In this document: positions 27,155 to 53,306 of the stretch, one piece after another
Numbering within the stretch: the stretch's first letter is position 1
Layout: the number at the start of each line of letters is the position of its first letter
From: Acidobacteriota bacterium
Lineage (GTDB): Bacteria > Acidobacteriota > UBA6911 > RPQK01 > CBDFMZ01
NCBI GenBank assembly: GCA_965249865.1
Contig: CBDFMZ010000001.1
Location: 704,415-768,414, forward strand
DNA length: 64,000 bases
Reading direction: 5' to 3'
The notes under the pieces: model-generated
What the model was told of the DNA's origin: nothing
Seen by the model: only the letters and a program-made list of their open reading frames with translations
The model's database searches: none
Program-made: the position numbers and the translations under genes

Positions 27155-27827
27155 GCAAGCCACTTTCAGCAAAATTATCGCGGCCTACGCCAACACCTTG
27201 AGGCACGACATTTCCGCAGATGCCATCGAAATCTGGTGGCGCAAGCTCTCAAGGTTCGACCTATTTTCTATCGCTAAGGCTTTTTCCGATTATACCGAAA
27301 AAGGTCGGTTTTTCCCGTCACCGTCAGAAATAATTAGCCTTTTAGAGCCCGAGAAAGGAGGTTCACCTCTGCTGGCCTGGGTGGAAGTTGAAACAGCAAT
27401 AGTTCGGCATGGAGGTTATGTCACAGTTCAATTTACAGACCTGGTGACTAACGCTGTGATCCGCGATCTTGGCGGATGGCCCTGGCTGTGCCAGCAGAAC
27501 CTGGATGAACCCTGGATGCAAAAGGAGTTCGAGCGTCGCTATGGCGAGTACCATCAACACAAAGTGAACTACTCAACGCCACTTCAGGGGCTGGTGGAGC
27601 AACACAACCGCCTGAAGGGATACCACGATCACATCCCAGAACCGGTCGTGATCGGGGAGGGCCCAGTGGCATTGCCAGAGCCGGATCGGACCCGCGAGGT
27701 GCTCTCCAAACTCGGAGAACTCGTGAAGCAAAAGGAGAAGCCGGAAGGCGGGGAGACGGCCTCTCGGAAAGCGAAGCCGATGCCACCTGCTGCTGCCTTG
27801 ATCGACGAAGAGGAGGTGCCGGTTTGA
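27108..27827 (+). CDS. hypothetical phage protein (replication-module position)
   Basis: 239-aa ORF overlapping the upstream gene end; no recognised motifs. Confidence 0.45.
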   Translation: MPKIGSRGESNMNANEQATFSKIIAAYANTLRHDISADAIEIWWRKLSRFDLFSIAKAFSDYTEKGRFFPSPSEIISLLEPEKGGSPLLAWVEVETAIVRHGGYVTVQFTDLVTNAVIRDLGGWPWLCQQNLDEPWMQKEFERRYGEYHQHKVNYSTPLQGLVEQHNRLKGYHDHIPEPVVIGEGPVALPEPDRTREVLSKLGELVKQKEKPEGGETASRKAKPMPPAAALIDEEEVPV

Positions 27828-28018
27828 GCCCGCATATGGGCGCCTATCTCGGGGTTGATCCAGGGGCATCGGGAGGAATTGCGATGGTTGATGGCGATCT
27901 GGCGCAAGTTTGGGCATTCAAGAAACTGACGGAGCGGGACATCTCGGATCTGTTCGAGTGTTTTGAGGCCCGAGGGAATGTGGAGGAAGGACAATCAACC
28001 AAGACCGCCGCCCCCTGA
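27824..28018 (+). pseudogene. RuvC-like Holliday-junction resolvase N-terminal fragment
   Basis: MSPHMGAYLGVDPGASGGIAMVDGDL resembles the RuvC-fold N-terminus (I.GIDPG...G.A..). The ORF ends after 64 aa and is followed by about 170 bp of GC-rich sequence with no coherent frame before the cargo region. Confidence 0.4.
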
Positions 28019-28183
28019 TCTGCCCCCACTGCCAGGGCGCCATCTCGTCTTCCCTGGTCGCCAGGTACCTTGGCGCTCCCGGGTCCGCTTCCAAATCTCC
28101 CAAGAAGGTCGCCTCCGCCATGCGCAACATCGCCAAGGCGCAAAAGGCCCGGTGGAAGGGCCACCGGAGGAAGAAGGCGAAGC

Positions 28184-30649
28184 ATGGAATCTGTCGGCCA
28201 CGCCGACTACAATGTGAACCGTAAAAAGTGGAACTGCATCCCAAGGTTGAAGAGGTATTTTGTGTTTAAAAAGGGCCTGTTCGTTTCTGTCTTAGGTCTA
28301 CTGTCGGTTGTAGCGGCGGACCTTGTCACTGCTGCTGCACCGAGCGTGGAGATCTACACCCGAAACGGGAAAGGCACGAATCAAGATCCTGCCAAATCGA
28401 ACGCCTGGTTTAGTCCAAGGGCCAGGATCAATGGGACGGATGGGGAGCTTTTGGGCGGATATACTTTTCGCTGGAGATCCGAACCGCCCATGGTTTTTCT
28501 TGGTACGGATACGTGCTGTGCCCGGTTTCTTCTCCCAGAGGGTTGGGAAACGCTCACCGAATTCACAATTGTTCTTGAATTGGTCACTACCTCGAGGACG
28601 ACGATCCACACGCAATCCTTTTGGGCAAAGGAGGAATCCGGTGATGGAGGAGGTGAGTTGACACTCCCCTCCAACGTAGTAGCGCAGGTCAGCCCAGAAA
28701 TAGCGAGTTTAGGCGGTATCTTTTCCTTGACGGGTTCAGCTAGCGGGACAGTGGACCAATGGGCTTGGCTGGTGAGCAACACTTCGACAGACAAAGGGCT
28801 TGTCGTTAGAACGACGCAGAATGCTTCCTATCCGGCACCTCAGTATAGTACCAACCTTTACTTCACCCTGGAGGCTTCCAACAGCTTAGGGACCACTCCT
28901 AGCCTTCAGGTCAAGGTTGAGACCCGTGAGGAGAGTGATTCGAGTACGCCGAAAACGTGCAACGACTGCGCCACGGGTAATTCTCCCCAGGTGGATGCTG
29001 GTTCTATCAGTGAAACTATTCAGGGGGGACAGGTGCTCGCCCTGAATGGTAGCTGTATTGACCGTAATTCATATGGGGGGGCGGTCTCACCTGTCTCTCG
29101 AACCTTCCTGTGGGAGATCATCAATGACCAGGGATTGACGAGCTCGGGGTTGAAAATTGACAGTGCGGACGAACAAAATGCTTTCCTGGTGACGCCTTCG
29201 GTGGATGAGGATAAGCCACCTATTGAGATTCGGTTCAGCTGCATAGTCAACAGTTGTCCCTGCGAGGATTTGATTCTGGTGACTCTGAACAAGGACGCGC
29301 CAAGCCAAGTGGATGCCAGGCTGCAATACGGGGTGGGAGCCGATGGCGGCTTGATCGATGCCCCGGAGCAGCTAGTCGAGGTGTATTCTGCAGTTGAAAT
29401 CATTCTTGAAGCGAGTGGTAGCATTGGGGACAACTTGAGTGACGCGAACTTCGAGTGGACAAAGCAGGAAAATATCACCAGTGAACAGGGAGGAGTCGTC
29501 CTTGTCAAAAATGGCATGACTGCCACGCTGGTGCTTTCAGGAGGTACTGAGGGGACAATCACAGTCATAATCACGGTGACGCAAGGTAGTTCCACTTCGA
29601 GCAAATCAATAACTTTTAACGTTAGTGCTTCCACTCAACAGCCTTTAGCCCAGGTTCAGGTTTTCGTACAGGGTCGGGAAGTCCCTGAAGACGTCCCTTC
29701 GCCAATCGAAGTCGCAGAAGGTGTGTTGGTGGTCTTGGATGGTTCTGACAGTTCTTATCCGAATGGAAGTAAGCCCAATTTGACCTTCGACTGGCAGCAA
29801 GTTGGAGGAACACCCGTGAATCTGATTGGGCTCGATCAGGACCAGGCACGATTCATCGCACCGGATGCGAATGGTGAGGAGGGAATTCTTAAGTTACAGC
29901 TTACGGTGCATGATGGGGAGATCAGCTCCGAGCCGGAGTTGGTGGAGATTCGAGTGGTAATCGCACCTTTCTATTTTGCTCAAGTCGGAGTGGGTCCTGT
30001 GGATACTGAGTACGAGTTTCGGACAGTTTTGTTGTTGGTGAACAACACAGACCAGTTGGCGGAGAACGTTTTGGTTGAGTTCACCGACTGGACGGGTGTG
30101 CCTTTGGAAACGACGGTTAATGAGCAAGCTTGGGAGAATGCTCCGTTTGAAATCAATTCTCTCTCCTTTGCGCGGCTGGAGCTTCGAGGAGATACTCTTC
30201 AAGAAGGTTGGGCTTGTGTGAAGTCCGCTGTGGAATTGACCGGTTTGGTACTCTTCCAGGTCGTTGAAAGCATGTCTGGAAAGGTAGACCGGGAGGTAGC
30301 CATCTTCGAATCGCCCAGTGCCACAGGATTTGTGACCTACTTTAATCGGTTGGAACAAACAGTCGCTGCCATCGCCAATCCGGGAGAGCAAGTAGCAACG
30401 GTAAGGCTAACGATTAGCGATACAATTCTGGGCGAAGTGAAATCTAAACTTCTAGAGATTGGGTCTAGAGAGCACGTAGCCGAATTTTTGAATGAGGATT
30501 TCTTTGGGGAATTCCTTGAGGGCTTTGAACAGGGGACGCTCGTAATAGAGTCTGACTTGCCCGTGATTGTGACCATTCTGAAGACCGAAAAGGGGCTTGT
30601 GTGGTCTACGACGCCGATAGGCATCATTCGCCCGCAATTTCTTCTCTAG
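28184..30649 (+). CDS. large secreted protein with PKD/Ig-like repeat domains
   Basis: 821 aa from ATG 28184 (the listed 28070 TTG extension looks spurious); signal peptide VFKKGLFVSVLGLLSVVAA; PKD-like segment VVLDGSDSSYPNGSKPNLTFDWQQVGGTPVNL...ARFIAPD...LKLQLTVHDGE; Thr/Ser/Val-rich beta composition. Confidence 0.55.
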   Translation: MESVGHADYNVNRKKWNCIPRLKRYFVFKKGLFVSVLGLLSVVAADLVTAAAPSVEIYTRNGKGTNQDPAKSNAWFSPRARINGTDGELLGGYTFRWRSEPPMVFLGTDTCCARFLLPEGWETLTEFTIVLELVTTSRTTIHTQSFWAKEESGDGGGELTLPSNVVAQVSPEIASLGGIFSLTGSASGTVDQWAWLVSNTSTDKGLVVRTTQNASYPAPQYSTNLYFTLEASNSLGTTPSLQVKVETREESDSSTPKTCNDCATGNSPQVDAGSISETIQGGQVLALNGSCIDRNSYGGAVSPVSRTFLWEIINDQGLTSSGLKIDSADEQNAFLVTPSVDEDKPPIEIRFSCIVNSCPCEDLILVTLNKDAPSQVDARLQYGVGADGGLIDAPEQLVEVYSAVEIILEASGSIGDNLSDANFEWTKQENITSEQGGVVLVKNGMTATLVLSGGTEGTITVIITVTQGSSTSSKSITFNVSASTQQPLAQVQVFVQGREVPEDVPSPIEVAEGVLVVLDGSDSSYPNGSKPNLTFDWQQVGGTPVNLIGLDQDQARFIAPDANGEEGILKLQLTVHDGEISSEPELVEIRVVIAPFYFAQVGVGPVDTEYEFRTVLLLVNNTDQLAENVLVEFTDWTGVPLETTVNEQAWENAPFEINSLSFARLELRGDTLQEGWACVKSAVELTGLVLFQVVESMSGKVDREVAIFESPSATGFVTYFNRLEQTVAAIANPGEQVATVRLTISDTILGEVKSKLLEIGSREHVAEFLNEDFFGEFLEGFEQGTLVIESDLPVIVTILKTEKGLVWSTTPIGIIRPQFLL

Positions 30650-30756
30650 CCGCTGATTTTTATGGCGGCTATCGCGCAGCGCATGGAGAATACCCAGCTT
30701 CGCTACAAGGATTTGGTGGCATAGTTGTGGCGACAACACCCTTCCAGGACTAAGAA

Positions 30757-33081
30757 ATGACGGACAAAAAGCGCCAAACGGACCCAAAGGAATCCGCGAC
30801 GCGGAAGAGGATCGATATTATCCTCAACAACCTCAAATGGAATACTAATGAGTCGTCCCCACATTGCAACGTCTTCACGGAGCGGGCCAAAACTTCTGAG
30901 CAGCACCGCGCACTCCGAGGACGGCACCCAGACTATGTTCTCTATCGGTCCGGGACCGACACGCCGATTGCAGTCATTGAGGCGAAACGCTCCGGTCAGA
31001 GCCTCGAAAAGGCACGCAAAAAGGCCATCCTATATTATTCCACGCCCTTGAAGGTGCAGATCGTCTTCCTGGCCGATGGGTCACTCATCGAAACCTTCGA
31101 CCGACGAAGCGGACGAGCGCTGCTCGACGATGGTGAGCCGATCACGTCATTGCTCTCAGAGAAGCAATTGCTCCGCTTTGTGGAAGAAGGACCTGAAATC
31201 CAAACCCCTCCAGTTGTCCAGCATACGAAGCAGGAATTGATCGCAGTATTTAAGGAAGCGAACGATTTGCTCCGGCGTGAGGGCCTGCGAGAGGGGATCG
31301 AACGCTTCACGGAGTTCTCCAACCTTCTGTTCCTGAAACTCATCAATGAGATTGAGCAGGAGCGCGAGAGTCGAGGCGATCAGAGAATCTTGGAGAAGAA
31401 ATACTGTTGGGATGCCTTCTATCAACGGACGGGTGAAGATATGCTCGACTATATCAACGACACGATTTTACCCCGACTGGTCAATCGGTATAACCATAGT
31501 GGCGACGTGTTCCAGCCGAGGCTCCTAATTTCTTCCCCGAACACGCTCAAGCGAATTGTCGATAAGCTCTCGGCACTCACGTTGGTTGACACTGATTCAG
31601 ACATTAAGGGAGACGCCTTTGAGTATTTCCTGAAGAACTCGATTTCTGTAGGCAATGATCTGGGCGAATACTTTACGCCACGCCATATCGTTAGGCTCAT
31701 GGTTGATCTTGTGGACCCGCGCTTTGGTGAGCTCATCTACGATCCGGCGTGTGGAACAGGTGGTTTTCTGATTCAGGCGTTTCGACATATCAAGAACAAG
31801 GTGCGGCAGACAAAGCCGAATCTCCGGCGACTGAGAGAGCGAACTGTATACGGGCGTGAGCTGACAGGCACCGCTAAGATCGCCAAGATGAACATGATAA
31901 TTATTGGCGATGGGCACACAAACGTTGAGCAGAAGGACAGCCTGAAGCATCCGGTGAGACAAGCCTATGATGTGGTGCTCACGAACTATCCGTTTTCCCA
32001 GGACACCGAGTTTTCCAACTACTACGGGCTCACGACCGAGAGCGCAAACCCGGTGTTTTTGAAGCATGTGATTGATGCGCTCAAAAACGGAGGACGCGCC
32101 GCTGTCGTGGTGCCGGAGGGTTTACTGTTCGATGAAGGGTCTCAGTGCGAGAAGGTTCGCAGAATCCTTCTGGAGACGTGCGGCCTCGAATCGGTCATCA
32201 GCCTCCATCAGTACGCGTTTCGCCCGTATACTGGCCAGCCGACTAGCATACTCGTATTCCATAAAGGGAGTCCTACTCGCAAGGTCTGGTTTTTCGACAT
32301 TCAGGAAGATGGATTTGCCAAAACACTTAGGCTCACAGGTAGACCTACCATCAAGGAGAACGACATTCCACTACTGCGGCAATTGTGGTACGAAAAGTCC
32401 GATTCTGACAGGTCATTTTCCGTTGGGGTTGATTCAATACGCACACATGGTTATAAGCTTACAGCCGATGAGTATCGCGAGACACACGGAAAAGACGGGT
32501 GGGTGCCACTCGGAGGGAATCGTGGCCTGTGCGATCTCGTGATCGGTGGCACACCGTCTCGAAAGAAGCTTCAGTATTTTGGCGGTCCGCATCTATGGGT
32601 CAAGATAGGGGACATATCGAACGCAAACGGCCTGCCTATCACCGAGACGAATGAAACGATTACAGATGAAGGCGTCGATAAATCGAACGTGAAGCTGGTT
32701 CCAAAAGGCACGGTGTTGTTGAGTTTTAAGCTATCTGTCGGCAAGGTAGCGATTGCCGGTTCTGACCTGTATACCAATGAAGCGATTGCCGCGCTGATCC
32801 CTAAAGACAAACGCATACTCCCGAAGTATCTCTATTATTTGCTCCCAAGGCTCGATGGTCTTGGAACTCGGAAGGCCGCGAAGGGCATAACGTCTAGCAA
32901 GGCACGTTTAGCCGAAGTGCTTGTTCCGCTTCCTTCACTCCGCGTTCAGAAAAAACTTATTAAGGAAATGGACGGGCAAGAAGTCCAGATTAGGGCCTAT
33001 GAACAGAAGATTAAGCGGGCAAATGCGAGAGAGGAAACCCTCGTGAATGAACTGACACTCCCGTTGAAAGACAACGCATGA
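30757..33081 (+). CDS. single-chain Type IIG-like restriction-modification enzyme (PD-(D/E)xK nuclease + gamma-class N6-adenine MTase + HsdS-like TRD)
   Basis: 774 aa. N-terminus has HsdR_N-like nuclease motif (HPDYVLY ... IAVIEAKR). Middle has MTase motif I DPACGTGGFL and motif IV TNYPFS. C-terminal about 200 aa resemble a type I specificity-subunit target-recognition domain (..VPKGTVLLSFKLSVGKVAIAG..). Confidence 0.65.
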   Translation: MTDKKRQTDPKESATRKRIDIILNNLKWNTNESSPHCNVFTERAKTSEQHRALRGRHPDYVLYRSGTDTPIAVIEAKRSGQSLEKARKKAILYYSTPLKVQIVFLADGSLIETFDRRSGRALLDDGEPITSLLSEKQLLRFVEEGPEIQTPPVVQHTKQELIAVFKEANDLLRREGLREGIERFTEFSNLLFLKLINEIEQERESRGDQRILEKKYCWDAFYQRTGEDMLDYINDTILPRLVNRYNHSGDVFQPRLLISSPNTLKRIVDKLSALTLVDTDSDIKGDAFEYFLKNSISVGNDLGEYFTPRHIVRLMVDLVDPRFGELIYDPACGTGGFLIQAFRHIKNKVRQTKPNLRRLRERTVYGRELTGTAKIAKMNMIIIGDGHTNVEQKDSLKHPVRQAYDVVLTNYPFSQDTEFSNYYGLTTESANPVFLKHVIDALKNGGRAAVVVPEGLLFDEGSQCEKVRRILLETCGLESVISLHQYAFRPYTGQPTSILVFHKGSPTRKVWFFDIQEDGFAKTLRLTGRPTIKENDIPLLRQLWYEKSDSDRSFSVGVDSIRTHGYKLTADEYRETHGKDGWVPLGGNRGLCDLVIGGTPSRKKLQYFGGPHLWVKIGDISNANGLPITETNETITDEGVDKSNVKLVPKGTVLLSFKLSVGKVAIAGSDLYTNEAIAALIPKDKRILPKYLYYLLPRLDGLGTRKAAKGITSSKARLAEVLVPLPSLRVQKKLIKEMDGQEVQIRAYEQKIKRANAREETLVNELTLPLKDNA

Positions 33082-33374
33082 CTACGACACCTAAGCCAAA
33101 GCAGGGCGAGGTTGCGATAAAGAAACCCAAGACCGTTAAAGAGTACGTCAGAGGCGATGTTCACACCAATGGCATTGAGTCTCTATGGTCCATGCTCAAG
33201 CGCGGATATGTAGGAACCTATCACCAGATGAGCGCGAAGCACGTCCATCGGTACGTTAGAGAGTTCGCCGGTCGGCAGAACCTTCGGGAGTTCGACACCC
33301 TGACGCAGATGGGCCTCCTCGCTAAGGGACTGGACGGAAAGCTCCTCCACTACCGTGATCTGATTGCGGACTGA
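33078..33374 (+). pseudogene. IS1595-family (ISXO2-like) transposase C-terminal remnant
   Basis: From EYVRGDVHTNGIESLWSMLKRGYVGTYHQMSAKHVHRYVREFAGRQNLRE.. about 70% identical to the C-terminus of the full-length transposase at 37924..38958; the N-terminal 250 aa are missing; overlaps the stop of the upstream RM gene by 4 nt. Confidence 0.7.
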
Positions 33375-33454
33375 GGAAAACTTTGTGAAAGTCTTGTTGA
33401 TAAGGTGTTAACTTCTTGTGAATCAACTGTTTACGGACGATTTGTGTTGACGGA

Positions 33455-34303
33455 ATGAGCCAAGCTGCGTATATTCTCCACGTGCCAAAGGTGCCGTCGA
33501 TAGACCCCGTTGTTTCCACGGATTTAGGGAAGCTCTACCAAGCCGATTGCTTGGAAGTCTTGCCGGGGATACGCAGTGATTCGGTCGATGCTGTGTTTGC
33601 CGATCCTCCCTTTAATCTTCGGAAAAACTATGGCGGTCACGTGAAAGACGATAGGAGAGACTATCTCGGGTGGTGTCTCGCATGGTTGGAGGAGTGCGTT
33701 CGCATCTTGCGGCCCGGGGGGTCGGTATTTGTCTACAATCTGCCGAAATGGAACGTGCAGATTGCCGGTGCACTTGAAGGCATGGGGATGGAGTTTCGTC
33801 ATTGGATAGCCGTAGAGCAGAATAACCGCCTCCCGATCCGTGGGCGGCTGTACCCTTCGCACTACTCTCTGATCTACTACTCGAAGGGAAGCCCTAAAAC
33901 ATTTCACCATATCCGTACCCCAATAACCACGTGCCGACATTGCGGGAAGGAACTCAAAGACTATGGGGGCCACCGGAAAGCGATGCACCCGGACGGAGTG
34001 AATCTCAAAGACGTGTGGACCGACATCCCTCCTGTTCGTCATTGGAAGTTCAAGCCGACCACTCGGAACTGCAATTCTCTGAGTACCAAGCTCCTAGAAC
34101 GTGTTATTGAAATCAGCACGGAGCCGGGGGACGTTGTGCTTGATCCGTTTGGAGGAAGCGGAACGACTTACGCTGTATGCGAACAGAAGTCCCGCAAGTG
34201 GATCGGGATAGAAATAGAAGACCTTAGTTCCATCTTGGAGCGCCTGAACGGAGGGGTTTATAACCACTCCAATGATGATGTGGTGGAGTTTTGCCAGTCA
34301 TAA
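33455..34303 (+). CDS. DNA methyltransferase, beta-class (N4-cytosine or N6-adenine; DPPF motif)
   Basis: 282 aa; motif IV FADPPFNL near N-terminus and motif I LDPFGGSGTT near C-terminus (circularly permuted beta-class order). Confidence 0.8.
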   Translation: MSQAAYILHVPKVPSIDPVVSTDLGKLYQADCLEVLPGIRSDSVDAVFADPPFNLRKNYGGHVKDDRRDYLGWCLAWLEECVRILRPGGSVFVYNLPKWNVQIAGALEGMGMEFRHWIAVEQNNRLPIRGRLYPSHYSLIYYSKGSPKTFHHIRTPITTCRHCGKELKDYGGHRKAMHPDGVNLKDVWTDIPPVRHWKFKPTTRNCNSLSTKLLERVIEISTEPGDVVLDPFGGSGTTYAVCEQKSRKWIGIEIEDLSSILERLNGGVYNHSNDDVVEFCQS

Positions 34304-34821
34304 CTGAACGCCAAAGTTTCAACGGGTTTGAAGTAAAGATCCAGCGGCTTAACCTGGAAGAAGTGATCGCCGAAGTATACGAAGCGGTAGAGTCTTTCGA
34401 GCTTCGAGTTGATGAGCGGATACACGCAAACGGGACTCGGTGGATTCGTCAGCAAATCGACACCCACTTTGAACGAGTGGGAGGCTGGGAAAACACCGTT
34501 GTGGGTGGGGTGGATTGGAAGAAGTCAAACTCTCGCGGGAGTACAGTCGCCGTTGAGGTTCAAGTCTCCGGGAGAAGTGACCTGCTTGCGGTGGATGTCT
34601 TGCACCTTGGGCGGGTTCTTACCGGGGGAACTGTTGATGTCGGTTTGATTGTAGTACCTGACGATACCTTGTCAAGATTCCTAACCGACCGGACACCCAA
34701 TCTCAGAACAGCATTGAGGCACATAGACGGGGAAATGGCAGTTCAGATAGTTGCGTTCCGGCATGACGGGGCTGGACCCGCTTTGCCAAAAATGAGAACT
34801 AATCTCGGGAAGGCTCCATGA
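34291..34821 (+). CDS. putative Type II restriction endonuclease partner of upstream MTase
   Basis: 176-aa ORF overlapping the MTase stop by 13 nt; no recognisable family, assignment by context; contains acidic/lysine candidates (VEVQVSGRSD..). Confidence 0.35.
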   Translation: MPVITERQSFNGFEVKIQRLNLEEVIAEVYEAVESFELRVDERIHANGTRWIRQQIDTHFERVGGWENTVVGGVDWKKSNSRGSTVAVEVQVSGRSDLLAVDVLHLGRVLTGGTVDVGLIVVPDDTLSRFLTDRTPNLRTALRHIDGEMAVQIVAFRHDGAGPALPKMRTNLGKAP

Positions 34822-34991
34822 AAGACCGAACGAAGCCCAAACGCAAGCCTGGCCGTCCCTCCAAGCCTATCCCTAAGCTGGATGCTACGCCGGAGGAAAT
34901 AGCCAGGAGAATCTTTGAAAACGCCAAGCCCCCGGACCCGTCAATTCGAGTCAGGAACAAACCGGAGAAATTAGGAGGGTTGGCTAGTTAG
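34818..34991 (+). CDS. small basic protein (57 aa), AT-hook-like GRP motif
   Basis: MKDRTKPKRKPGRPSKPIPKLDATPEEIARRIFENAK..; ATG overlaps the upstream stop (atga); ends at the inverted-repeat junction. Confidence 0.35.
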   Translation: MKDRTKPKRKPGRPSKPIPKLDATPEEIARRIFENAKPPDPSIRVRNKPEKLGGLAS

Positions 34992-35040
34992 GTATGTAAT
35001 CCCCTTCGTTTAGGGGATTATATACTAAAGTAGCGAAGCA
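34980..35040. repeat. two IS1595-type terminal inverted repeats abutting outward-to-outward, 7-bp spacer (ttcgttt)
   Basis: 34980-35004 ttggctagttaggtatgtaatcccc (degenerate, about 17/23 match to the 38961-38989 end, same orientation) and 35012-35040 aggggattatatactaaagtagcgaagca (23/26 match to the reverse complement of 38961-38989). Confidence 0.6.
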
Positions 35041-35046
35041 CCTGAC

Positions 35047-35223
35047 TCACTTTGACTCCTTCTCAGGCATGACCTTGCGAATCCTCACAGGTTTTACCAG
35101 TGCCTGAATCGCTTCCTTGAAGGTGCCCTTGATCCGCAAGTCTTCGCGCAGTTCCGCACGGCTCGGTTGGTAGTCGTGAGAGACGATCTCGACCGTTGGA
35201 GTCTTGTCTTGCTTCTTTGTCAT
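35047..35223 (-). CDS. small hypothetical protein (58 aa) downstream of Type IIG gene
   Basis: MTKKQDKTPTVEIVSHDYQPSRAELREDLRIKGTFKEAIQALVKPVRIRKVMPEKESK; 24 bp after the Type IIG stop, same strand. Confidence 0.3.
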   Translation of the reverse strand: MTKKQDKTPTVEIVSHDYQPSRAELREDLRIKGTFKEAIQALVKPVRIRKVMPEKESK

Positions 35224-35247
35224 CACATCCTCCTCAGAGTTCGATCA

Positions 35248-37914
35248 TCATACTGACGACAGTACATGAGCGAGCGAGTCCGACACTGCATCAGCTTCCT
35301 GCCTCAATGACGTCGATCTATCCAATTGCTCTAACGCAACGTCAACGGACGCCTTCTGTTCATGCTTGTCGGGTGGATACAAAATTCTGAGTGCTTTAAT
35401 GGCCGGATAGTCCAATGCCAACCGAGACGATCCTGTAACCGCTCGATTGAATTGTGACCGGCATAAGTCGGAATTAAGAAACAGGCACAGATACTCCGGC
35501 ATGATCTCATTGTTAACTTCTATCTTTACAGAGTGTTGATTGATGTTCGCAGGCGGGAATCCTTTCTGGACCACTGCCGCGATTCCGTAGGTTCCTGTAA
35601 TCGTCAACACGACGTCTGATTCGCACAACTGCGACCTGCGCAGCGCGTCATGTGTCCTTGTTCCAATACACGGATCGTCTTCTGGGCTCCATTCCAGTCT
35701 CATCGGCTTTACGTTCTGGACCCGCACAAACTTTGGGCCGTCGTCAGGATACGATGCGCCGCGCGGAGTTGCTCCACCAGCCAGAGCGGTCTTGCTGCTC
35801 TTACGAAGCAATTCCCCGAGTGGCTTGATGAACCATGCACGCTTGGATGCCACTTCGTCCAGCGTATCCATTGTGTCGAAGTAGCGCGGATCGAAGAAGT
35901 GCGCGTCAAGTCGAAGCGTTGGATTGTGTGAGCGAAGGTCTGGCACGAGAAACGCCCGGTCCTTCCCGCGCAACTTTCCAGTAGAATCGAAATTCTCGAA
36001 CTCCTCCAGGATCTGCGGCAACTCATTGAGGTGTGGACGCTCCTTTCCTGAATCGCTATGCCCAACGTTCTTGCAAATGGCCATGAAAACATCAGCCTGG
36101 GGTTCCGATGGATCTGTCTTCTTCCGTAAGTAGATCACTGACGTCCTGACTGAGCCTTGTGCCTTGACGAACGTGTTACGCGGAAGCGAGATGACTGCAC
36201 GCAGAACAAACTTCGCCAGAATATATTCACGAAACGGTCTTGACGTTAGTGTGTTGAGGACGCTTTCGTCCATTATGGTGACTAAGCGACCCGCGCCCAG
36301 GTCAGAATCTCCACCTGTTAGTAGATCATGGTAGCGTTCGAGGAACATCACCGATGAACGCAGAGATGCCCGTGGCTTTCCATCCTCGTCTGTTGCTAGC
36401 GCATAGTCACTAAGTACCGAGAGTTCGCTTGGCTCCTTCCGTTCGTACGTCATAGAGAACGGTGGATTGCTGAGAACGCAGGAAAAAGTTGTCTTCCCGG
36501 TCGTGATCTCAGATCGCAGTTCGTCGATTTCAAGTTGCATTGGAAGCGGCAGTCCGTCCTCGGTGAGGAGGCGCTTATCTAGGGCGTCAGCAAAGTAGAT
36601 GCGACTTCCACCGTCCTTGTGCAGCAACATATTCAGGCGAGCTATACGCGCCATTTTCGGATCCTTGCCGGCATCAATGCCCCACAACATTCCTTGCCGC
36701 AGTCGCCGGAGTAGCTTTGCCTTCTCTGCCTTGGTAATCGATTTGCTTCTGAGCACCTTCCCTGTCATTTCGGCCATGGCTTCGATGAGGAAACCGCCGC
36801 TGCCGCAGCAGCCGTCCAAAACCAAATCCATCTTGGCCTTTGAGGCCCGCAATTTCGCAAGTTGCACCATGAACTTAACAACCGCGCGGGGTGTAAAAAA
36901 CTGCCCTAATGCCTTACCACGCATTGTTGCGGTGAGAAACGTTTCGAACAAGCGGCCGTTCAAATCCTCATCGACAGTGTAGAGGTCAAGGTGCTCAAGG
37001 AATAAAACCGCAGCCTTCACAGTCAGAGGCGCTAGTTGAATGCCCTCACCGGGCTCAAATATCCGCTTCTTTTCACCTTTTGCGATCTGAGCCTCAAGTT
37101 GCTTTGCGAGTTGAGCGAAAAGGATCGTATCGATGGGGTTGTCCGTCGTACTTTCCATCTGCTCAATCCAATCAACAGAAAAGCGAACCGCATCGGCTGG
37201 CACGGCCTCCGCCCCGGCTTCGATCTTGTTTTCAATCAAATACTCACGGAGGCGACGGTCTTCGTCGATCTTCACAAACATGACCTTGGCGAACTCGTAA
37301 AACGCAGAGGCGGGGCTTCGCTTTTCGGCTTTCCAGATCCTCCGATGGCAAGACTCGAAGATAGCCGGAAGCTCCACAGGTGCAACAGAGCGAAAATCGA
37401 AGGTGTTCCCCTTCGTGCCTTGACCTGTAGGGATCTCAGTCAACGAATCGCGGGCTATAGCTGAACAAAGGGCCTCAAACACGGGATGCCCATCAACAAG
37501 TTCAGCGAACGCCAGTGAATGCATCACTTTGTCGCTATCGTAGTGCTTGACGACCAACCGATGCCCGTTGATGCCCATGCAATACTGCTCGGGCTTCGGC
37601 TCCGACATTCGTCGGCGAATCACTGAGGCGTAGAGCTGCGCATCGTGGACTCCAGCTTCAGCGCTTTCATTGGGGTGTTTGGCGTCAATAATCAGAACAG
37701 GCTTGACCCTGGCGCGCACTGTATAGGCAAGGTAATCAGGAACGTATCCTCTATTCTTCTTCCTTCCCTTGCCTATTGATACCGCATCGATAGAGGCTTT
37801 GGTTTCAAGATAGTCTGCCCCGTACCCAAGATGTGCCAGTAGGGGCGCAACCAGAAACTGTTCGACATCGCTCTCGTTCCGAAGATTCTTGAGCTTGCAG
37901 AACAAATTCAACAT
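35248..37914 (-). CDS. single-chain Type IIG-like restriction-modification enzyme, second paralogue (nuclease + MTase + TRD)
   Basis: 888 aa. N-terminal PD-(D/E)xK (VPDYLAY ... VLIIDAKH), MTase motif I LDGCCGSGGFL and motif IV SNPPFS, C-terminal HsdS-like TRD; same architecture as 30757..33081 but divergent sequence. Confidence 0.65.
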   Translation of the reverse strand: MLNLFCKLKNLRNESDVEQFLVAPLLAHLGYGADYLETKASIDAVSIGKGRKKNRGYVPDYLAYTVRARVKPVLIIDAKHPNESAEAGVHDAQLYASVIRRRMSEPKPEQYCMGINGHRLVVKHYDSDKVMHSLAFAELVDGHPVFEALCSAIARDSLTEIPTGQGTKGNTFDFRSVAPVELPAIFESCHRRIWKAEKRSPASAFYEFAKVMFVKIDEDRRLREYLIENKIEAGAEAVPADAVRFSVDWIEQMESTTDNPIDTILFAQLAKQLEAQIAKGEKKRIFEPGEGIQLAPLTVKAAVLFLEHLDLYTVDEDLNGRLFETFLTATMRGKALGQFFTPRAVVKFMVQLAKLRASKAKMDLVLDGCCGSGGFLIEAMAEMTGKVLRSKSITKAEKAKLLRRLRQGMLWGIDAGKDPKMARIARLNMLLHKDGGSRIYFADALDKRLLTEDGLPLPMQLEIDELRSEITTGKTTFSCVLSNPPFSMTYERKEPSELSVLSDYALATDEDGKPRASLRSSVMFLERYHDLLTGGDSDLGAGRLVTIMDESVLNTLTSRPFREYILAKFVLRAVISLPRNTFVKAQGSVRTSVIYLRKKTDPSEPQADVFMAICKNVGHSDSGKERPHLNELPQILEEFENFDSTGKLRGKDRAFLVPDLRSHNPTLRLDAHFFDPRYFDTMDTLDEVASKRAWFIKPLGELLRKSSKTALAGGATPRGASYPDDGPKFVRVQNVKPMRLEWSPEDDPCIGTRTHDALRRSQLCESDVVLTITGTYGIAAVVQKGFPPANINQHSVKIEVNNEIMPEYLCLFLNSDLCRSQFNRAVTGSSRLALDYPAIKALRILYPPDKHEQKASVDVALEQLDRSTSLRQEADAVSDSLAHVLSSV

Positions 37915-37923
37915 GTCGATGCC

Positions 37924-38958
37924 CTAGTAGCTCCGCGCTCCCGAGTCGAGCCCATTGTCAGCAACCAGCTCTCGGTAACGCAGTCTCTTGCCGTTCATGC
38001 CGTCGCTGACAGTCTGCATCTGCTCGATGGTGTCCTGTTCGCGGACGTTGTGACGGCCAGCGAACTCCTGGACGTAGCGGTTCAGGTGCTTCGGGGAGAG
38101 CTTGTGGAACGTGCCCTTGTGCGCCCGTTTGAGCATGGACCACAGTGATTCTATGCCGTTGGTATGGACATCTCCCTTGACATACTCGGAGAGCGAGTGC
38201 TTGATGACTGCATGATCGAATGGAAGCGACTCATAGGCGGCTGCATCATCGGTGTAAACCGTAGCTCCTGGTGTGGCGTGATCCTTGACGAAACCTTGCA
38301 GCGTTTCCTTGTCGGCAAACCGAACAACCTTAGCAGCGACCTGCTTGGTAGCCCTATCCTTGGCTCCGACGACGGCGGTCTTGCCTACCGGCCCTCGTCC
38401 AGTGTCCGCCAGGGCCTTGCGCTTTGCTGTGCTCATATTCCGGCGACGACCCCCAAAATAGCTCTCGTCTACCTCGACCGGGCCACTAAACAGCGTATTG
38501 TCATCCTGTGACAAGGCGGAACGCAACCTCTGGGCAAGAAACCATGCAGACTTTTGAGTTATTTCAAGATCGCGGCTCAACTTCATGCTCGACACACTCT
38601 TCAGGTTGGTCATAATCTCGAACGTTGCGATGATCCAATCCTGATAACCGATCTTCGAGCCTTCCATCACCGTCCCAACCTTTGCGCTGAACAGCTTTCC
38701 GCATTCCTTCTCACGGCAGCGGAATGGCATGGTGGGATGCTTCGCTCCAGTCTGAACATTCAGCGACCCACACTTAGGGCAACACACGCCATTAGGCCAG
38801 CGTTGCTCAATAAACCACTTCTCCGCCGTTTCGTCATCGGGGAACATCCGCATGATCTGCTTGAGGGAGATGCCCTTGCGGAATGCCTTTCCAGGTGCCT
38901 TCTTTCTTCTCTTCTTTTCCATACTCAATATCTTACACGAGAGTAGCGGTGGCGTCAA
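37924..38958 (-). CDS. IS1595-family (ISXO2-like) transposase, full length
   Basis: 344 aa; N-terminal zinc ribbon (CPKCGSLNVQ...FRCREKECGKLF); DDE region; C-terminal HTNGIESLWSMLKR..HLNRYVQEFAGRHN typical of the ISXO2-like transposase domain. Confidence 0.8.
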   Translation of the reverse strand: MTPPLLSCKILSMEKKRRKKAPGKAFRKGISLKQIMRMFPDDETAEKWFIEQRWPNGVCCPKCGSLNVQTGAKHPTMPFRCREKECGKLFSAKVGTVMEGSKIGYQDWIIATFEIMTNLKSVSSMKLSRDLEITQKSAWFLAQRLRSALSQDDNTLFSGPVEVDESYFGGRRRNMSTAKRKALADTGRGPVGKTAVVGAKDRATKQVAAKVVRFADKETLQGFVKDHATPGATVYTDDAAAYESLPFDHAVIKHSLSEYVKGDVHTNGIESLWSMLKRAHKGTFHKLSPKHLNRYVQEFAGRHNVREQDTIEQMQTVSDGMNGKRLRYRELVADNGLDSGARSY

Positions 38959-38960
38959 GT

Positions 38961-38989
38961 ATTTTCGCTACTTTCGTATATAATCCCTC
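38961..38989. repeat. terminal inverted repeat adjacent to transposase start
   Basis: attttcgctactttcgtatataatccctc; reverse complement matches 35012-35040 at 23/26 positions. Confidence 0.65.
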
Positions 38990-39261
38990 TCCTATTCTAG
39001 GGGCATTATATAGCATAGTGCCCAGGGGAAGGAGATCACTCCAGCCAGTGCCGGAGTAAAACCCACACTGTGAGCGTCACCCCCTATCTGCTAACCTACC
39101 AGGGAGGTGGGCGGGCTGAGGTCTAAAGCTCTAACCCCTACTAAGTAACTAACTCAATGAGTACTGTGACTATGAGTAACCCTAACCTACCGCATCCTAA
39201 GACTAGAGCAACTCTATCCTACCCCTACCCACCAGATGAGTAACCCTGATCAACTTAACCC

Positions 39262-39852
39262 ATGAGCAATGCTAAGATTTCCGCCCCCACACCCACCAAA
39301 AAACTCACCCGCCAGCAATCCCTCTTCATCCGCTACTACCTCCAGTGCTTCAACGGCGCAGAGGCCGTAAGACAAGCCGGATACAGCCTCAAGGCAGCAA
39401 ATAGACAGGCCGTGCAGCTTTTGTCCATGCCTGTCGTCGTGTTTGAGATCCAGCGGCGCATGGCGGTGCTCCTAGGCAAGCTGGACATCTCGGCAGAGCG
39501 GGTCATTGCGGAAATGTGCAAGGTGGCGTTCTCAGACCTCTCGGAAGTGGCCGAATGGGGTCCGGATGGTCTAAAACTGAAAGATTCCGCCAGCCTCGAC
39601 CCCAGTGCTGCCGCATCCGTGCGCACCATTGCCGAGAAGCACACCAAGTACGGCAAGAGCCTGGCCATCCAGCTGCATGACAAGGTGAAGGCGCTGTACA
39701 CCCTGGGCAGATGGCTCAAGCTGGGCGAGGTGGAAGAGGGGCTGGGACCACGGCTGACAACGGGCATTCCACACTGTGAGGAACTGCCGGAGCAGGCAAC
39801 GAACAGGCAACAACAGGATCTGGCGGCCTCTCCTGGGGATGACCTTCCGTAG
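39262..39852 (+). CDS. phage terminase small subunit
   Basis: 196 aa; N-terminal LTRQQSLFIRYYLQCFNGAEAVRQAGYS matches the small-terminase HTH signature; immediately upstream of the large terminase. Confidence 0.7.
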   Translation: MSNAKISAPTPTKKLTRQQSLFIRYYLQCFNGAEAVRQAGYSLKAANRQAVQLLSMPVVVFEIQRRMAVLLGKLDISAERVIAEMCKVAFSDLSEVAEWGPDGLKLKDSASLDPSAAASVRTIAEKHTKYGKSLAIQLHDKVKALYTLGRWLKLGEVEEGLGPRLTTGIPHCEELPEQATNRQQQDLAASPGDDLP

Positions 39853-40106
39853 ACCCCCCCCCACCGTCCTGCTACCCCCCCTTCGCATCTCTATATGCGC
39901 CCGTCTGGGTGAAAACGGAAAAACGGAGGAATGGAAAGGGCGCCTCGGAAAAATAGAGAGAGGGAAAACTGGGGTTGTGAAGGGGGAGCGCGAAGGTTGG
40001 TGCAGTGGCATAGGGGGTCTCGTGACTATCGCCTGACCTATGGCGCGGTAGTGTATCATTGCGAGAGCCCCGTTGGAGTCGCCTGATGAATTAGATTGGA
40101 GGATAG

Positions 40107-41576
40107 GTGGCTTCCACCCACACGCAATCCGGCCTGGAGCGTCTTAGGCTAGAGTATCAGGGCTACACGCCTTTCCCGAAACAGGTGGCGTTTCACAAGT
40201 CTGGGGCACGGTATCGCTTGTTTGGGGGAGCGGCGGGTCCGGGAAAGAGTATTGCGCTGATCATGGAGGGGGTGAAGTTTGCTGGGGAGATGTACGACAA
40301 GGTAAGCGTGCTGATTTTACGGCGGACGTTCGAGGAGTTGGAAGGATCGATCATTTTGAACTTTCACCGTCAAGTCCCCCGGGAGTTGTATAAGAGCTAC
40401 AGCACCCAGAAGCACCGGGTGGAGTTTCACAATGGATCGATTCTGAAGTTCGGATATTGCAAGCATGAGAACGACATCTGGCAGTACCAGGGACACGAGT
40501 ACATTTTGGTGTTATGGGATGAGCTGACGCAGTTCACGCTTTCGCAGTGGCAGACGATGAAGGGGTGGAACCGCTCGCCGTATGGGCCGGGGAAGATGGC
40601 GGGGGCGACCAACCCGGTGGGAGTGGGCTGGAAGTGGGTCAAGCAGCTGTGGATCGACCGGGAGCCTGCCGATGGGATGGATGAGAACGAAAAGCGCCGG
40701 TATCAGCCTGCGGACCACCACTACATCCCGGCCAACTACACGGACAATCCGATTTACGCCAAGGACAAGAGCTACATTGCGGCGCTGGAGGCCCTGCCGA
40801 CACACCTGAAAGAAGCCTTGATGGCGGGGCGTTGGGACGTGCGGGCCGGGAGTTACTTCGATATTTTTGATCCGGCCACGATGTGCGGTCGGCCCGAGCT
40901 ATGGGAGATTCAGCCCTGGTGGCCGAAGTGGATCTCGATCGACTGGGGGTTCAATCATCCGGCGGCCGTGTACTGGCACACGCGGGACGGGCATGTGACG
41001 TACACCTACCGGGAGCTGATTGCCAGGAAGACGAAGCCGGGGGACTTGGCGGAAATGATCTGCAAGCGGTCCCTGGCGAGGCACGGGGAGCAGGAGAAGG
41101 TGGAGGCGGTCTATCTTTCGCCGGATGCCTTCTGGGACCGGAGCGGAGGCGGCACGATTGCGGACCAGATGCACGAGGCGTTTCGGGCAAAAGGATTTCC
41201 GACGGTGGCTCAGGCGGACAATGACCGGGTAGGGGGCGCGATGCTCATGTATAGCCTCTTGAGCGATGGCCTGTGGAAGATCGGGACCAACTGCACGAAG
41301 CTGATCGAGTGTTTGCCGATGATGCAGCGGGATGAGAGGAACGTCGAGGACGTGGCCAAGATGGACGGGGACGATCCGTATGAGGGAGCCAGATATGGGT
41401 TAAAGAGCCGTCTTTCGCCCAAGCGCACGCCGGTGATGCAGCGGATTCGCGCCGAGATCACGGCCGAGGACAAGAACGCGCAGGCGATGCAGATCCGCCG
41501 GGCCCTGGCCGAAGAGGAAAAGAAGGTTCAGCCCAGAAGGCTCCGGTACCGGCGGCGGCGAAGAAGAACCTGGTAA
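40107..41576 (+). CDS. phage terminase large subunit
   Basis: 489 aa; Walker A GGAAGPGKS, Walker B-like VLWDELTQF, C-terminal nuclease-like region with conserved Asp residues; position before portal. Confidence 0.8.
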   Translation: MASTHTQSGLERLRLEYQGYTPFPKQVAFHKSGARYRLFGGAAGPGKSIALIMEGVKFAGEMYDKVSVLILRRTFEELEGSIILNFHRQVPRELYKSYSTQKHRVEFHNGSILKFGYCKHENDIWQYQGHEYILVLWDELTQFTLSQWQTMKGWNRSPYGPGKMAGATNPVGVGWKWVKQLWIDREPADGMDENEKRRYQPADHHYIPANYTDNPIYAKDKSYIAALEALPTHLKEALMAGRWDVRAGSYFDIFDPATMCGRPELWEIQPWWPKWISIDWGFNHPAAVYWHTRDGHVTYTYRELIARKTKPGDLAEMICKRSLARHGEQEKVEAVYLSPDAFWDRSGGGTIADQMHEAFRAKGFPTVAQADNDRVGGAMLMYSLLSDGLWKIGTNCTKLIECLPMMQRDERNVEDVAKMDGDDPYEGARYGLKSRLSPKRTPVMQRIRAEITAEDKNAQAMQIRRALAEEEKKVQPRRLRYRRRRRRTW

Positions 41577-53301: not shown

Positions 53302-53306
53302 GCCTT

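Follow-up and report, generated by a model that had tools for sequence, protein, structure and literature searches.

Genes and termini of the island

The window analysed here, 64,000 nt of contig CBDFMZ010000001.1 (positions 704,415 to 768,414) from assembly GCA_965249865.1 of an Acidobacteriota bacterium, contains between 30650 and 39025 a compact island of restriction-modification (RM) genes. A previous description made from the letters alone, here called the sequence-only reading, had proposed three RM units in a prophage. The four RM open reading frames (ORFs), encoding 774, 282, 176, and 888 amino acids, were found exactly where it had placed them, and its division into three units was borne out: a 774-aa enzyme, a methyltransferase (MTase)/nuclease pair, and an 888-aa enzyme, with the pair and the 888-aa gene convergent, as described. 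Omitted from its account of that interval were a complete 344-aa IS1595-family transposase gene (37924-38958, minus strand), a 98-aa ORF (33078-33374, plus strand) whose last 80 codons are the 3' end of an IS1595 transposase gene, and terminal inverted repeats (IRs) around the 888-aa unit.

The unit on the right, designated E2 (35013-38988), is 3,976 bp in length, is bounded by IRs, and contains, all on the minus strand, the transposase gene, the 888-aa gene, and a 58-aa ORF. Its terminal repeat distal to the transposase is found at 35013-35037 (GGGGATTATATACTAAAGTAGCGAA), and the repeat at the transposase end at 38964-38988; the paired arms, 35014-35037 and 38964-38987, extend for 24 nt, are 96% complementary, and lie 3,926 nt apart. 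The transposase, IS1595-family and ISXO2-like, matches Pfam model DDE_Tnp_IS1595 (PF12762, E = 1.2e-38), has an N-terminal Zn_ribbon_IS1595 domain (PF12760, E = 1.1e-7), and scores 176 bits, against a cutoff of 75, to NCBIfam model NF033547 (E = 8.5e-52). Its nearest relatives, 84% identical, occur in Acidobacteriota metagenome-assembled genomes (MAGs). The 888-aa gene (35248-37914) starts 9 nt after the transposase stop codon and is followed by the conserved 58-aa ORF (35047-35223; MTKKQDKTPTVEIVSHDYQPSRAELREDL...), which has a GAGGAGG ribosome-binding site upstream. A solitary IR-like left end (39000-39025, GGGGCATTATATAGCATAGTGCC), 11 nt from the end of E2, fits the family IR, including the inner AGTGCC, given a 1-nt insertion. 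No transposase-like sequence was found after it, and it would mark a fourth element, E3, that is otherwise absent.

Separated from E2 by 8 bp is the right end of E1 (33133-35004), a terminal IR at 34980-35004 (...GGTATGTAATCCCC) that stands in right-end orientation and differs from the E2 repeat at 4 of 20 positions. The genes of E1 are on the plus strand, beginning with an 80-codon 3' fragment of an IS1595-family transposase gene (33133-33374) that matches DDE_Tnp_IS1595 (E = 1.5e-12) and NF033547 (E = 4.1e-13) and shares 63% identity with the 344-aa transposase over residues 255-334 of the latter. It is followed by the genes for the 282-aa MTase (33455-34303) and the 176-aa nuclease (34291-34821), which overlap by 13 nt, and then by a 57-aa small ORF (34818-34991), whose ATG overlaps the nuclease stop codon. 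This last ORF (KLDATPEEIARRIF) resembles IDATPEELAKAI in the family member found at L078, a weak match (E = 0.01, in a small database), and may be a diverged member of the small-ORF family associated with these elements.

The third unit, E0 (30650-33136), also on the plus strand, opens with the last 24 or so codons of an IS1595-family transposase gene (30650-30724, stop codon at 30722-30724). The translation of this remnant, PLIFMAAIAQRMENTQLRYKDLVA, compares with the transposase C-termini MALIAENMTGSQLRYKDLVA from metagenome contig L001 and RLMDGQRLRYKDLVG from locus L174, each likewise ending at a stop codon. Next come the 774-aa gene (30757-33081) and the first 19 codons of a small ORF (33078-33136), in which 56 of 59 bases match the start of a 75-aa ORF of L001 (12322-12380); the two part ways after AAGACCGT. 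The 98-aa ORF is a composite, in which these 19 codons are joined in frame at 33136 to the transposase fragment of E1.

Counterparts of all three units were found elsewhere. Window positions 30693-33136 are 98.5% identical to positions 9937-12380 of L001, where the 774-family gene sits in a 4,586-bp element with perfect 20-nt IRs (GGGGAATTATATACAAAACT), downstream of a 313-aa IS1595 transposase gene and upstream of the 75-aa ORF. At L168, a gene whose product is 82% identical to the 774-aa protein occurs in a partial element with a right IR. Locus L174 represents an intact counterpart of E1, with transposase, MTase, BamHI-like nuclease, and 59-aa ORF in 2,560 bp, flanked by the target duplication CAAATATA; its nuclease, the product compared with the window, is 72% identical to the 176-aa protein. 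For E2, loci L172 and L173 each have a gene for a protein 78% identical to the 888-aa protein, together with a degraded transposase gene and a right IR.

The element family and the assembly of the island

A search with the 344-aa transposase against one genome per species returned 80 loci, most of them in Acidobacteriota MAGs (Bryobacterales, Terriglobia, and others) and some in Alphaproteobacteria and Chloroflexota. At 50 of the 80, elements with GGGGATTATATAC-type termini were delimited, 1.2-4.1 kb in length plus one of 7.9 kb. The layout of the family is left IR, transposase gene, cargo slot, conserved ORF of about 58 aa, right IR. Cargo follows directly after the transposase gene on the same strand, often with overlapping stop and start codons, and in most related elements the right IR is preceded, at a distance of 35-50 bp, by a small-ORF homologue (E from 1e-18 to 1e-5); all but two of the elements free of cargo have one as well. 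The small ORF defines the downstream edge of the cargo slot. Perfect 8-bp target duplications flank many relatives, cargo-bearing ones included (L011, AAACGAAT; L015, TAACGAAA; L017, TTACATTT; L031, TTAATATA), and a single 3,433-bp element occupies two sites in one genome with different duplications (L026, ATTCGAAA; L027, AATTAATA). Two checks held: the E2-type pair of IRs is present in other copies, and relatives with shared termini show target duplications. Ends of the form GGnnATTAT and cargo-bearing members of 1.75-4.75 kb characterise the ISNwi1 subgroup of IS1595, and the present elements fit in both respects.

The small ORF itself is about 55-65 aa in length (window 35047-35223, minus strand; L001, 12322-12549; L174, 4530-4709; and many of L003-L082), has the consensus ...V.L....YQPS.AEL.ED.R.DA.FEE..KA...PV.I..., and is without a family match.

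Cargo identified by Pfam includes an 888-family enzyme (L015), fusions of N6_N4 MTase to HNH, a D12 MTase with a NotI-like nuclease, an MTase with a BglII nuclease, a C5 MTase, and an Eco47II nuclease. Recognisable MTase or restriction endonuclease genes occur in 19 of the 35 cargo-bearing elements, or 13 of 26 distinct types. The relationships of backbone and cargo are discordant, which points to exchange of cargo modules: E2 and L015 have transposases 78% identical and enzymes 40% identical, while E2 and L172 have transposases about 50% identical and enzymes 78% identical. A composite transposon formed by two copies of one insertion sequence (IS) was considered for the island and rejected, as the transposases of E1 and E2 are 63% identical and each unit has its own IR.

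Two further observations concern other members of the family. The cargo-free elements L048-L061 (about 1,476 bp) and L024 (1,389 bp) encode the first 45 or so residues of an N6_N4-type MTase (MSALELNTLYYGDCLDWM..., MALNVRNRT...), with the stub fused to the small ORF in L024. By this criterion they look like deletion derivatives of MTase-carrying elements, and for the cargo-free copies examined, at least, MTase cargo seems to have been the ancestral state. In OX638379.1, a Bryobacterales MAG, identical 2,137-bp elements (L035 and L038) lie about 17 kb apart without duplications of their own, and their right flanks are reverse complements of one another (TACCCAAA and TTTGGGTA), the pattern typical of an inversion that arose by recombination between oppositely oriented IS copies.

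The island lies inside phage DNA, between replication genes and terminase. On its left are a replication initiator (phrog_16167, E = 1.9e-54), a DUF6475/phrog_10105 protein, and an 859-aa ORF; on its right are terS (Terminase_2, E = 5.6e-26), terL, the major head protein gene, and other virion genes. The prophage location given by the sequence-only reading is therefore upheld. The window yielded neither an integrase gene nor att sites.

We consider it likely that the region consists of nested transporter ISs of the IS1595 family, ISNwi1-like, lodged in the prophage, each with one RM system as its cargo. The elements would have inserted into the prophage, or recombined within it, between the replication module and terS. 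E2 would be complete and carry the 888-aa enzyme. E1, which carries the MTase and the BamHI-fold nuclease, would have been stripped of its left end and of all but the 3' part of its transposase gene, and what remains of E0 would be the last transposase codons, the 774-aa gene, and the opening of the small ORF. The presence of three unrelated RM systems side by side would follow from each having arrived as the cargo of an element of this family.

Several points weigh against this interpretation. E0 and E1, lacking left ends, cannot move by themselves, and their present state would have come about either by insertion in tandem and later deletions, or by recombination. The 8-bp sequences that flank E2 in the window do not match (left TTCGTTTA, right CTCCTATT), so its own transposition into the present site is not demonstrated; as both adjoin the ends of other ISs, they probably do not represent the original target. 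The activities, recognition sites, and oligomeric states of the RM enzymes are predictions, and two of the domain assignments fall short in Pfam, which does not detect the TRD (target-recognition domain) of the 888-aa protein and places HSDR_N below threshold in the 774-aa protein. No empty-site relative of the phage was found; the one TerL match among viral contigs, at 28% identity, is uninformative. Most metagenome members of the 774 family are not beside an IS1595 transposase gene, and at 80 metagenome loci of the wider family neither an IS1595 transposase nor the IR motif was found, so an IS association of the whole family was rejected. Similarly, the BamHI-like pair at L175 and L176 is chromosomal and without an IS. 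Taken together, these IS-free loci suggest that capture by ISs is specific to the lineage represented in the window. Last, the nearest copy of the 888-aa gene, 98.8% identical over window positions 35236-37909, does not lie within an IS. It is found on contig L002, which also bears NikA-like and RepA_C genes, and the similarity runs from codon 3 to 12 nt past the stop codon.

On L002 itself (8,977 bp), the 888-like gene overlaps the NikA-like gene, which is followed by the RepA_C gene, and a 440-aa SLFN_AlbA_2 gene is situated close to each end of the contig. The placement of this pair suggests a small plasmid read round more than once; an exact terminal repeat was looked for in this contig and was not found.

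Restriction-modification enzymes of the island

Hidden Markov model searches of the families named in the sequence-only reading returned N6_Mtase, Methylase_S, and N6_N4_Mtase, and HSDR_N weakly, in the 774-aa protein only. That protein combines a PD-ExK nuclease, a gamma-class N6-adenine MTase, a Type-I-like TRD, and a C-terminal helix. Its Pfam matches are to N6_Mtase (E = 1.9e-57), Methylase_S (2e-13), and, weakly and below the gathering score, HSDR_N (4.8e-5). Its N-terminus matches that of EcoAI-type R subunits (NCBIfam NF046051, E = 3.5e-8), and its TRD matches the S subunit in Protein Data Bank (PDB) entry 1yf2 (6.9e-32). The nuclease motif P58-D59...E75-x-K77, motif I (D329-P-x-C-G-T-G-G), and motif IV (N410-Y-P-F-S) are all invariant when the protein is aligned with 36 homologues, and DPACGTGG precedes NYPFS, the gamma-class order, with the TRD C-terminal. 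The structural model (predicted local distance difference test score, pLDDT, 81.5) shows an N-terminal alpha/beta domain (residues 1-150), an HsdM-like MTase, one TRD, and a single 45-residue C-terminal helix (728-772). Foldseek ranks Type I HsdM first for this model, then full-length BpuSI, then BsaXI and DrdV. The possibility that the downstream IS fragment had truncated the 774-aa protein was considered and rejected: most of the best 120 homologues, from more than 4,000 at E<=1e-10, are 760-790 aa in length with matching domains, and they align through the C-terminus.

For the 888-aa protein, in which a PD-DxK nuclease, a gamma-class N6-adenine MTase, and one TRD are recognised, Pfam returns N6_Mtase (E = 8.7e-26). 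The TRD is seen with the NCBIfam MAD5 S-subunit model over residues 662-876 (E = 7.8e-11, below cutoff), and the C-terminal 215 residues also match PDB chain 7vru_C (1.7e-5). P59-D60...(D77)-A78-K79, motif I, and N483-P-P-F show little or no variation across 31 sequences; DGCCGSGG is followed by NPPFS, and both are conserved. The best sequence match of known structure is RM.BsaXI (E = 9.8e-23), and homologues number more than 1,400 at E<=1e-10. Here too, the best-scoring homologues are mostly of like length, and their recorded Pfam domains agree with those of the window protein.

The catalytic nuclease, motif I, and motif IV residues on which the Type IIG-like assignment depends are thus present and conserved in both family alignments, and each large protein is a nuclease-MTase-TRD fusion with no helicase domain match in Pfam or NCBIfam. 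That assignment is accordingly upheld, and both proteins are, to judge by sequence, intact single-chain Type IIG enzymes. The accompanying claim that such fusions are uncommon fails, given the more than 4,000 and more than 1,400 homologues, and given that about 40% of the genomes in REBASE have a Type IIG system (Loenen et al. 2014, PMC3874165).

The best NCBIfam matches of the two proteins are to MAD2 of the MADS system (E = 1.1e-38 and 4.2e-44); with the MAD5 match at the 888-aa C-terminus and weak matches to PglX of BREX, they could be taken to mean that the large proteins are the MTase parts of a multi-gene MADS- or BREX-like system and not stand-alone restriction enzymes. We find this barely credible. 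The MAD2 model, with a cutoff of 720 bits, gives only 133 and 151, and the MAD5 model, with a cutoff of 400, gives 41; no other MADS or BREX genes are nearby, each gene travels as the sole cargo of an IS, and the N-terminal PD-(D/E)xK motif is conserved.

The two large enzymes share their domain order and lie in one cluster inside phage DNA, between replication genes and terminase, and the sequence-only reading had accordingly seen a pair of paralogues with recently shuffled specificities. On that account the island would have evolved on the phage as a set of morons, and the large enzymes would have diverged there by recent exchange of TRDs. The proteins are, however, just 25% identical over nuclease and MTase, and their TRDs cannot be aligned. 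Mean identities within the 774 family are 62% for the TRD, against 60% for the nuclease and 70% for the MTase; within the 888 family, they are 64%, against 62% and 66%. In nearly all homologues, in both families, TRD identity tracks that of the rest of the protein, and a replaced TRD is seen only in the distant members P0219 and L015. Because the TRDs diverge in step with the other domains, there is no sign of a recent swap of specificity, and on this sequence comparison the claim of recent shuffling falls: the 774-aa and 888-aa enzymes are not recent paralogues of that kind. Each gene, moreover, has a copy about 98% identical in a different context outside any phage (the L001 element, the L002 contig), and transposase genes and IRs bracket the RM genes. 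Among 2.9 million viral contigs, searched with close-relative patterns, there were no relatives of the 888-aa protein and only three of the 774-aa protein. An origin of the island by evolution on the phage is, in our estimation, very improbable.

Single-chain enzymes with Type-I-like TRDs have been described in HaeIV and AloI (PMC3874165), and HaeIV, with a symmetric bipartite site, is thought to act as a homodimer (PMC3874165, PMC4027205). The large proteins of the window resemble HaeIV in its architecture as described: an N-terminal PD-(D/E)xK nuclease, an HsdM-related gamma-class N6-adenine MTase, a Type-I-like TRD, and no translocase. Enzymes of the AloI type (AloI, PpiI, TstI) differ, with about 1,250 aa and two TRDs, compared with 774 and 888 aa and one TRD. 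The BpuSI structure aligns with the 774-aa model over its full length (E = 8e-22), and DrdV and the RM subunit of BsaXI match as well, although sequence identity to BpuSI, DrdV/MmeI, and BsaXI/BcgI is 12-19%, and BsaXI and BcgI, unlike the single-chain enzymes here, have a separate S subunit. For the MTase core of the 774-aa protein, the nearest match is Type I HsdM (5ybb_A, 28% identity). By these analogies, each large enzyme would recognise DNA through its single Type-I-like TRD, methylate adenine with S-adenosylmethionine, and, by its N-terminal PD-(D/E)xK domain, cut unmodified DNA at a fixed distance. One TRD and one long S-like C-terminal helix, as in the 774-aa model, would be compatible with pairing in the manner of a half-S subunit, and by analogy with the proposal for HaeIV the enzymes would most likely pair as homodimers on a symmetric bipartite site.

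A second pairing of both enzyme types was seen near phage-like lysis genes. On L167 (603-7370), from the same sample as L001, an IS1595 transposase gene (30% identical) overlaps the start of a gene for an 892-aa enzyme with HSDR_N_2 and N6_Mtase domains; its divergent neighbour encodes a 789-aa member of the 774 family (78% identical), and Peptidase_M15 and GTA_holin_3TM genes are close by.

The middle unit is of a different kind. The 282-aa protein is a DPPF-type MTase for N6-adenine or N4-cytosine (N6_N4_Mtase, E = 2.2e-40), in which DPPF precedes DPFGGSGTT, the beta-class order. Its 176-aa partner, previously regarded as of no known kind, can be assigned to the restriction endonucleases of BamHI/BglII/BstYI fold. 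Pfam models BamHI and Endonuc-BglII score 14.6 and 14.5 bits on the protein itself, under their cutoffs of 22.8 and 26. Its 323 homologues, most of about 175-185 aa, include many with faint matches to one or the other model, and 20 of 27 homologues match Endonuc-BglII at E<1, the best at 1.5e-4. The AlphaFold2 model (pLDDT 91) retrieves BamHI first in Foldseek (3bam_A; TM-score 0.85, E = 3.1e-10), followed by OkrAI and BstYI, and when a profile of the 27 homologues was run against the PDB it matched BamHI through the catalytic region (E = 0.0078). D75, E89, and Q91, invariant in the family, are aligned by the profile with D94, E111, and E113 of BamHI; the LTDR motif is common to both, and the D...E-x-Q arrangement is that of BglII. 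At 16-17% identity, and with 176 residues against about 200-220, the protein is modelled as a distant member of the BamHI superfamily, at superfamily level only. The profile, the Foldseek matches, and the adjoining, overlapping MTase gene mark the middle pair as a probable Type IIP system of ordinary kind with such a nuclease. An MTase gene also adjoins the BamHI-like nuclease gene at L174, L175, and L176. Palindromes with a GATC core are not depleted in the window (GGATCC 22, AGATCT 20, TGATCA 10, CGATCG 16), and the rarest palindromes there are the usual CTAG- and TA-rich ones.

With two of the three elements truncated and a solo IR besides, the island might instead be a decaying graveyard of IS fragments in a defective prophage, its RM genes silent or inactive leftovers. 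The E0 gene has no transposase gene upstream, and hence any co-transcription is gone, while the cargo of E1 begins 80 nt after its transposase fragment. An insert of about 8 kb may exceed the packaging capacity of the phage, and a scan for promoters and terminators gave counts no higher than in shuffled sequence. Against such decay, all four RM ORFs are full length for their families and keep every invariant catalytic residue, and a TTGACG-17-TATATT match lies just upstream of the MTase start (33447-33475). Without expression of its MTase, an intact restriction gene should kill the cell, so the intact pairs of nuclease and MTase argue for a working system. We judge the decayed state improbable. 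As intact cargo of the transporter ISs, the three systems would restrict DNA entering the lysogen and would serve the elements as addictive cargo.

Relation to described systems and phage surroundings

The concept of the transporter IS arose with the IS1595 family (Siguier 2009, as cited in PMC3129680, from which the definition is taken here). The elements of the window share with them a DDE_Tnp_IS1595 transposase with N-terminal zinc ribbon, short IRs, passenger genes inside the IRs, and, here in relatives, 8-bp target duplications. They differ in that half of the cargo types in the clade are DNA MTases or restriction systems, that cargo occupies a fixed slot between the transposase gene and the conserved ORF of about 58 aa, and that several elements are stacked end to end with 8-11 bp between neighbours. 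Furuta, Abe & Kobayashi (2010, PMC2853133) described RM units resembling transposons, which have IRs at their ends and an 8-bp target duplication, among them a homologue of Type IIG enzymes beside a transposase-like gene within imperfect IRs in Neisseria gonorrhoeae; where RM or M genes associated with ISs are mentioned, that paper cites Siguier 2009. What sets the present units apart is an intact, identifiable transposase, a large set of sister elements, and nesting within a prophage. Because transporter ISs and IR-bounded RM units have already been described, every component here is of a known kind, and travel as IS cargo is a known way for RM systems to spread. The novelty may be one of degree, in the dominance of RM cargo in the clade, the fixed slot, the discordance of backbone and cargo, and the end-to-end stacking.

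The further proposition that this clade of IS1595/ISNwi1-like elements is a dedicated vehicle for DNA MTases and restriction systems strikes us as doubtful. In its favour are the fixed slot, the frequent translational coupling of cargo to transposase, the MTase stubs of cargo-free copies, and the discordance of backbone and cargo. If methylation or restriction were tied to the biology of the element, these would form a distinct class of self-mobilising RM transposon and not a case of chance hitch-hiking. The link might be methylation-gated transposition, of the kind that Dam imposes on IS10 and IS50, or stabilisation of the IS through post-segregational killing. By inserting beside one another's ends, the elements could also build up RM arrays. 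E2 offers a concrete example of a full single-chain RM enzyme with its own transposase, in an apparently complete element, and its sister elements support the view of RM systems as selfish mobile units advanced by Kobayashi and co-workers. The stacking of ISs suggests how lysogens and prophages gain several specificities at once. For annotation, the lesson is that an apparent prophage defence island can be a pile-up of cargo-carrying ISs, the gene content of which reflects IS traffic, not phage evolution.

Metabolic enzymes are encoded to the left of about 25.5 kb. A chromosomal gene nearby has 89% identity in the L001 genome. The island has a G+C content of 0.51-0.54, and the structural module one of about 0.60; the value climbs over 39000-41000, from about 0.52-0.54 in the island and the chromosomal left part to about 0.60-0.61 in the structural genes (41-55 kb), a rise that marks the prophage as compositionally distinct from both the host flank and the island. 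The 859-aa ORF (28070-30649, plus strand) that adjoins the island on the left has a hydrophobic N-terminal segment and resembles a repeat-rich secreted protein; neither Pfam nor PHROGs gave a match for it. Because its G+C content, 0.51-0.55, resembles that of the island and not that of the structural module, this ORF may also be imported cargo. Just before it, a 64-aa ORF (27824-28018, plus strand) without a PHROGs match starts MSPHMGAYLGVDPGASGGIAMVDG..., resembling the N-terminus of a RuvC-like Holliday-junction resolvase, and appears truncated or frameshifted. In the virion or tail region, about four tandem 96-bp units, 83-90% identical, occupy 55149-55513 inside an 836-aa ORF (53235-55745).

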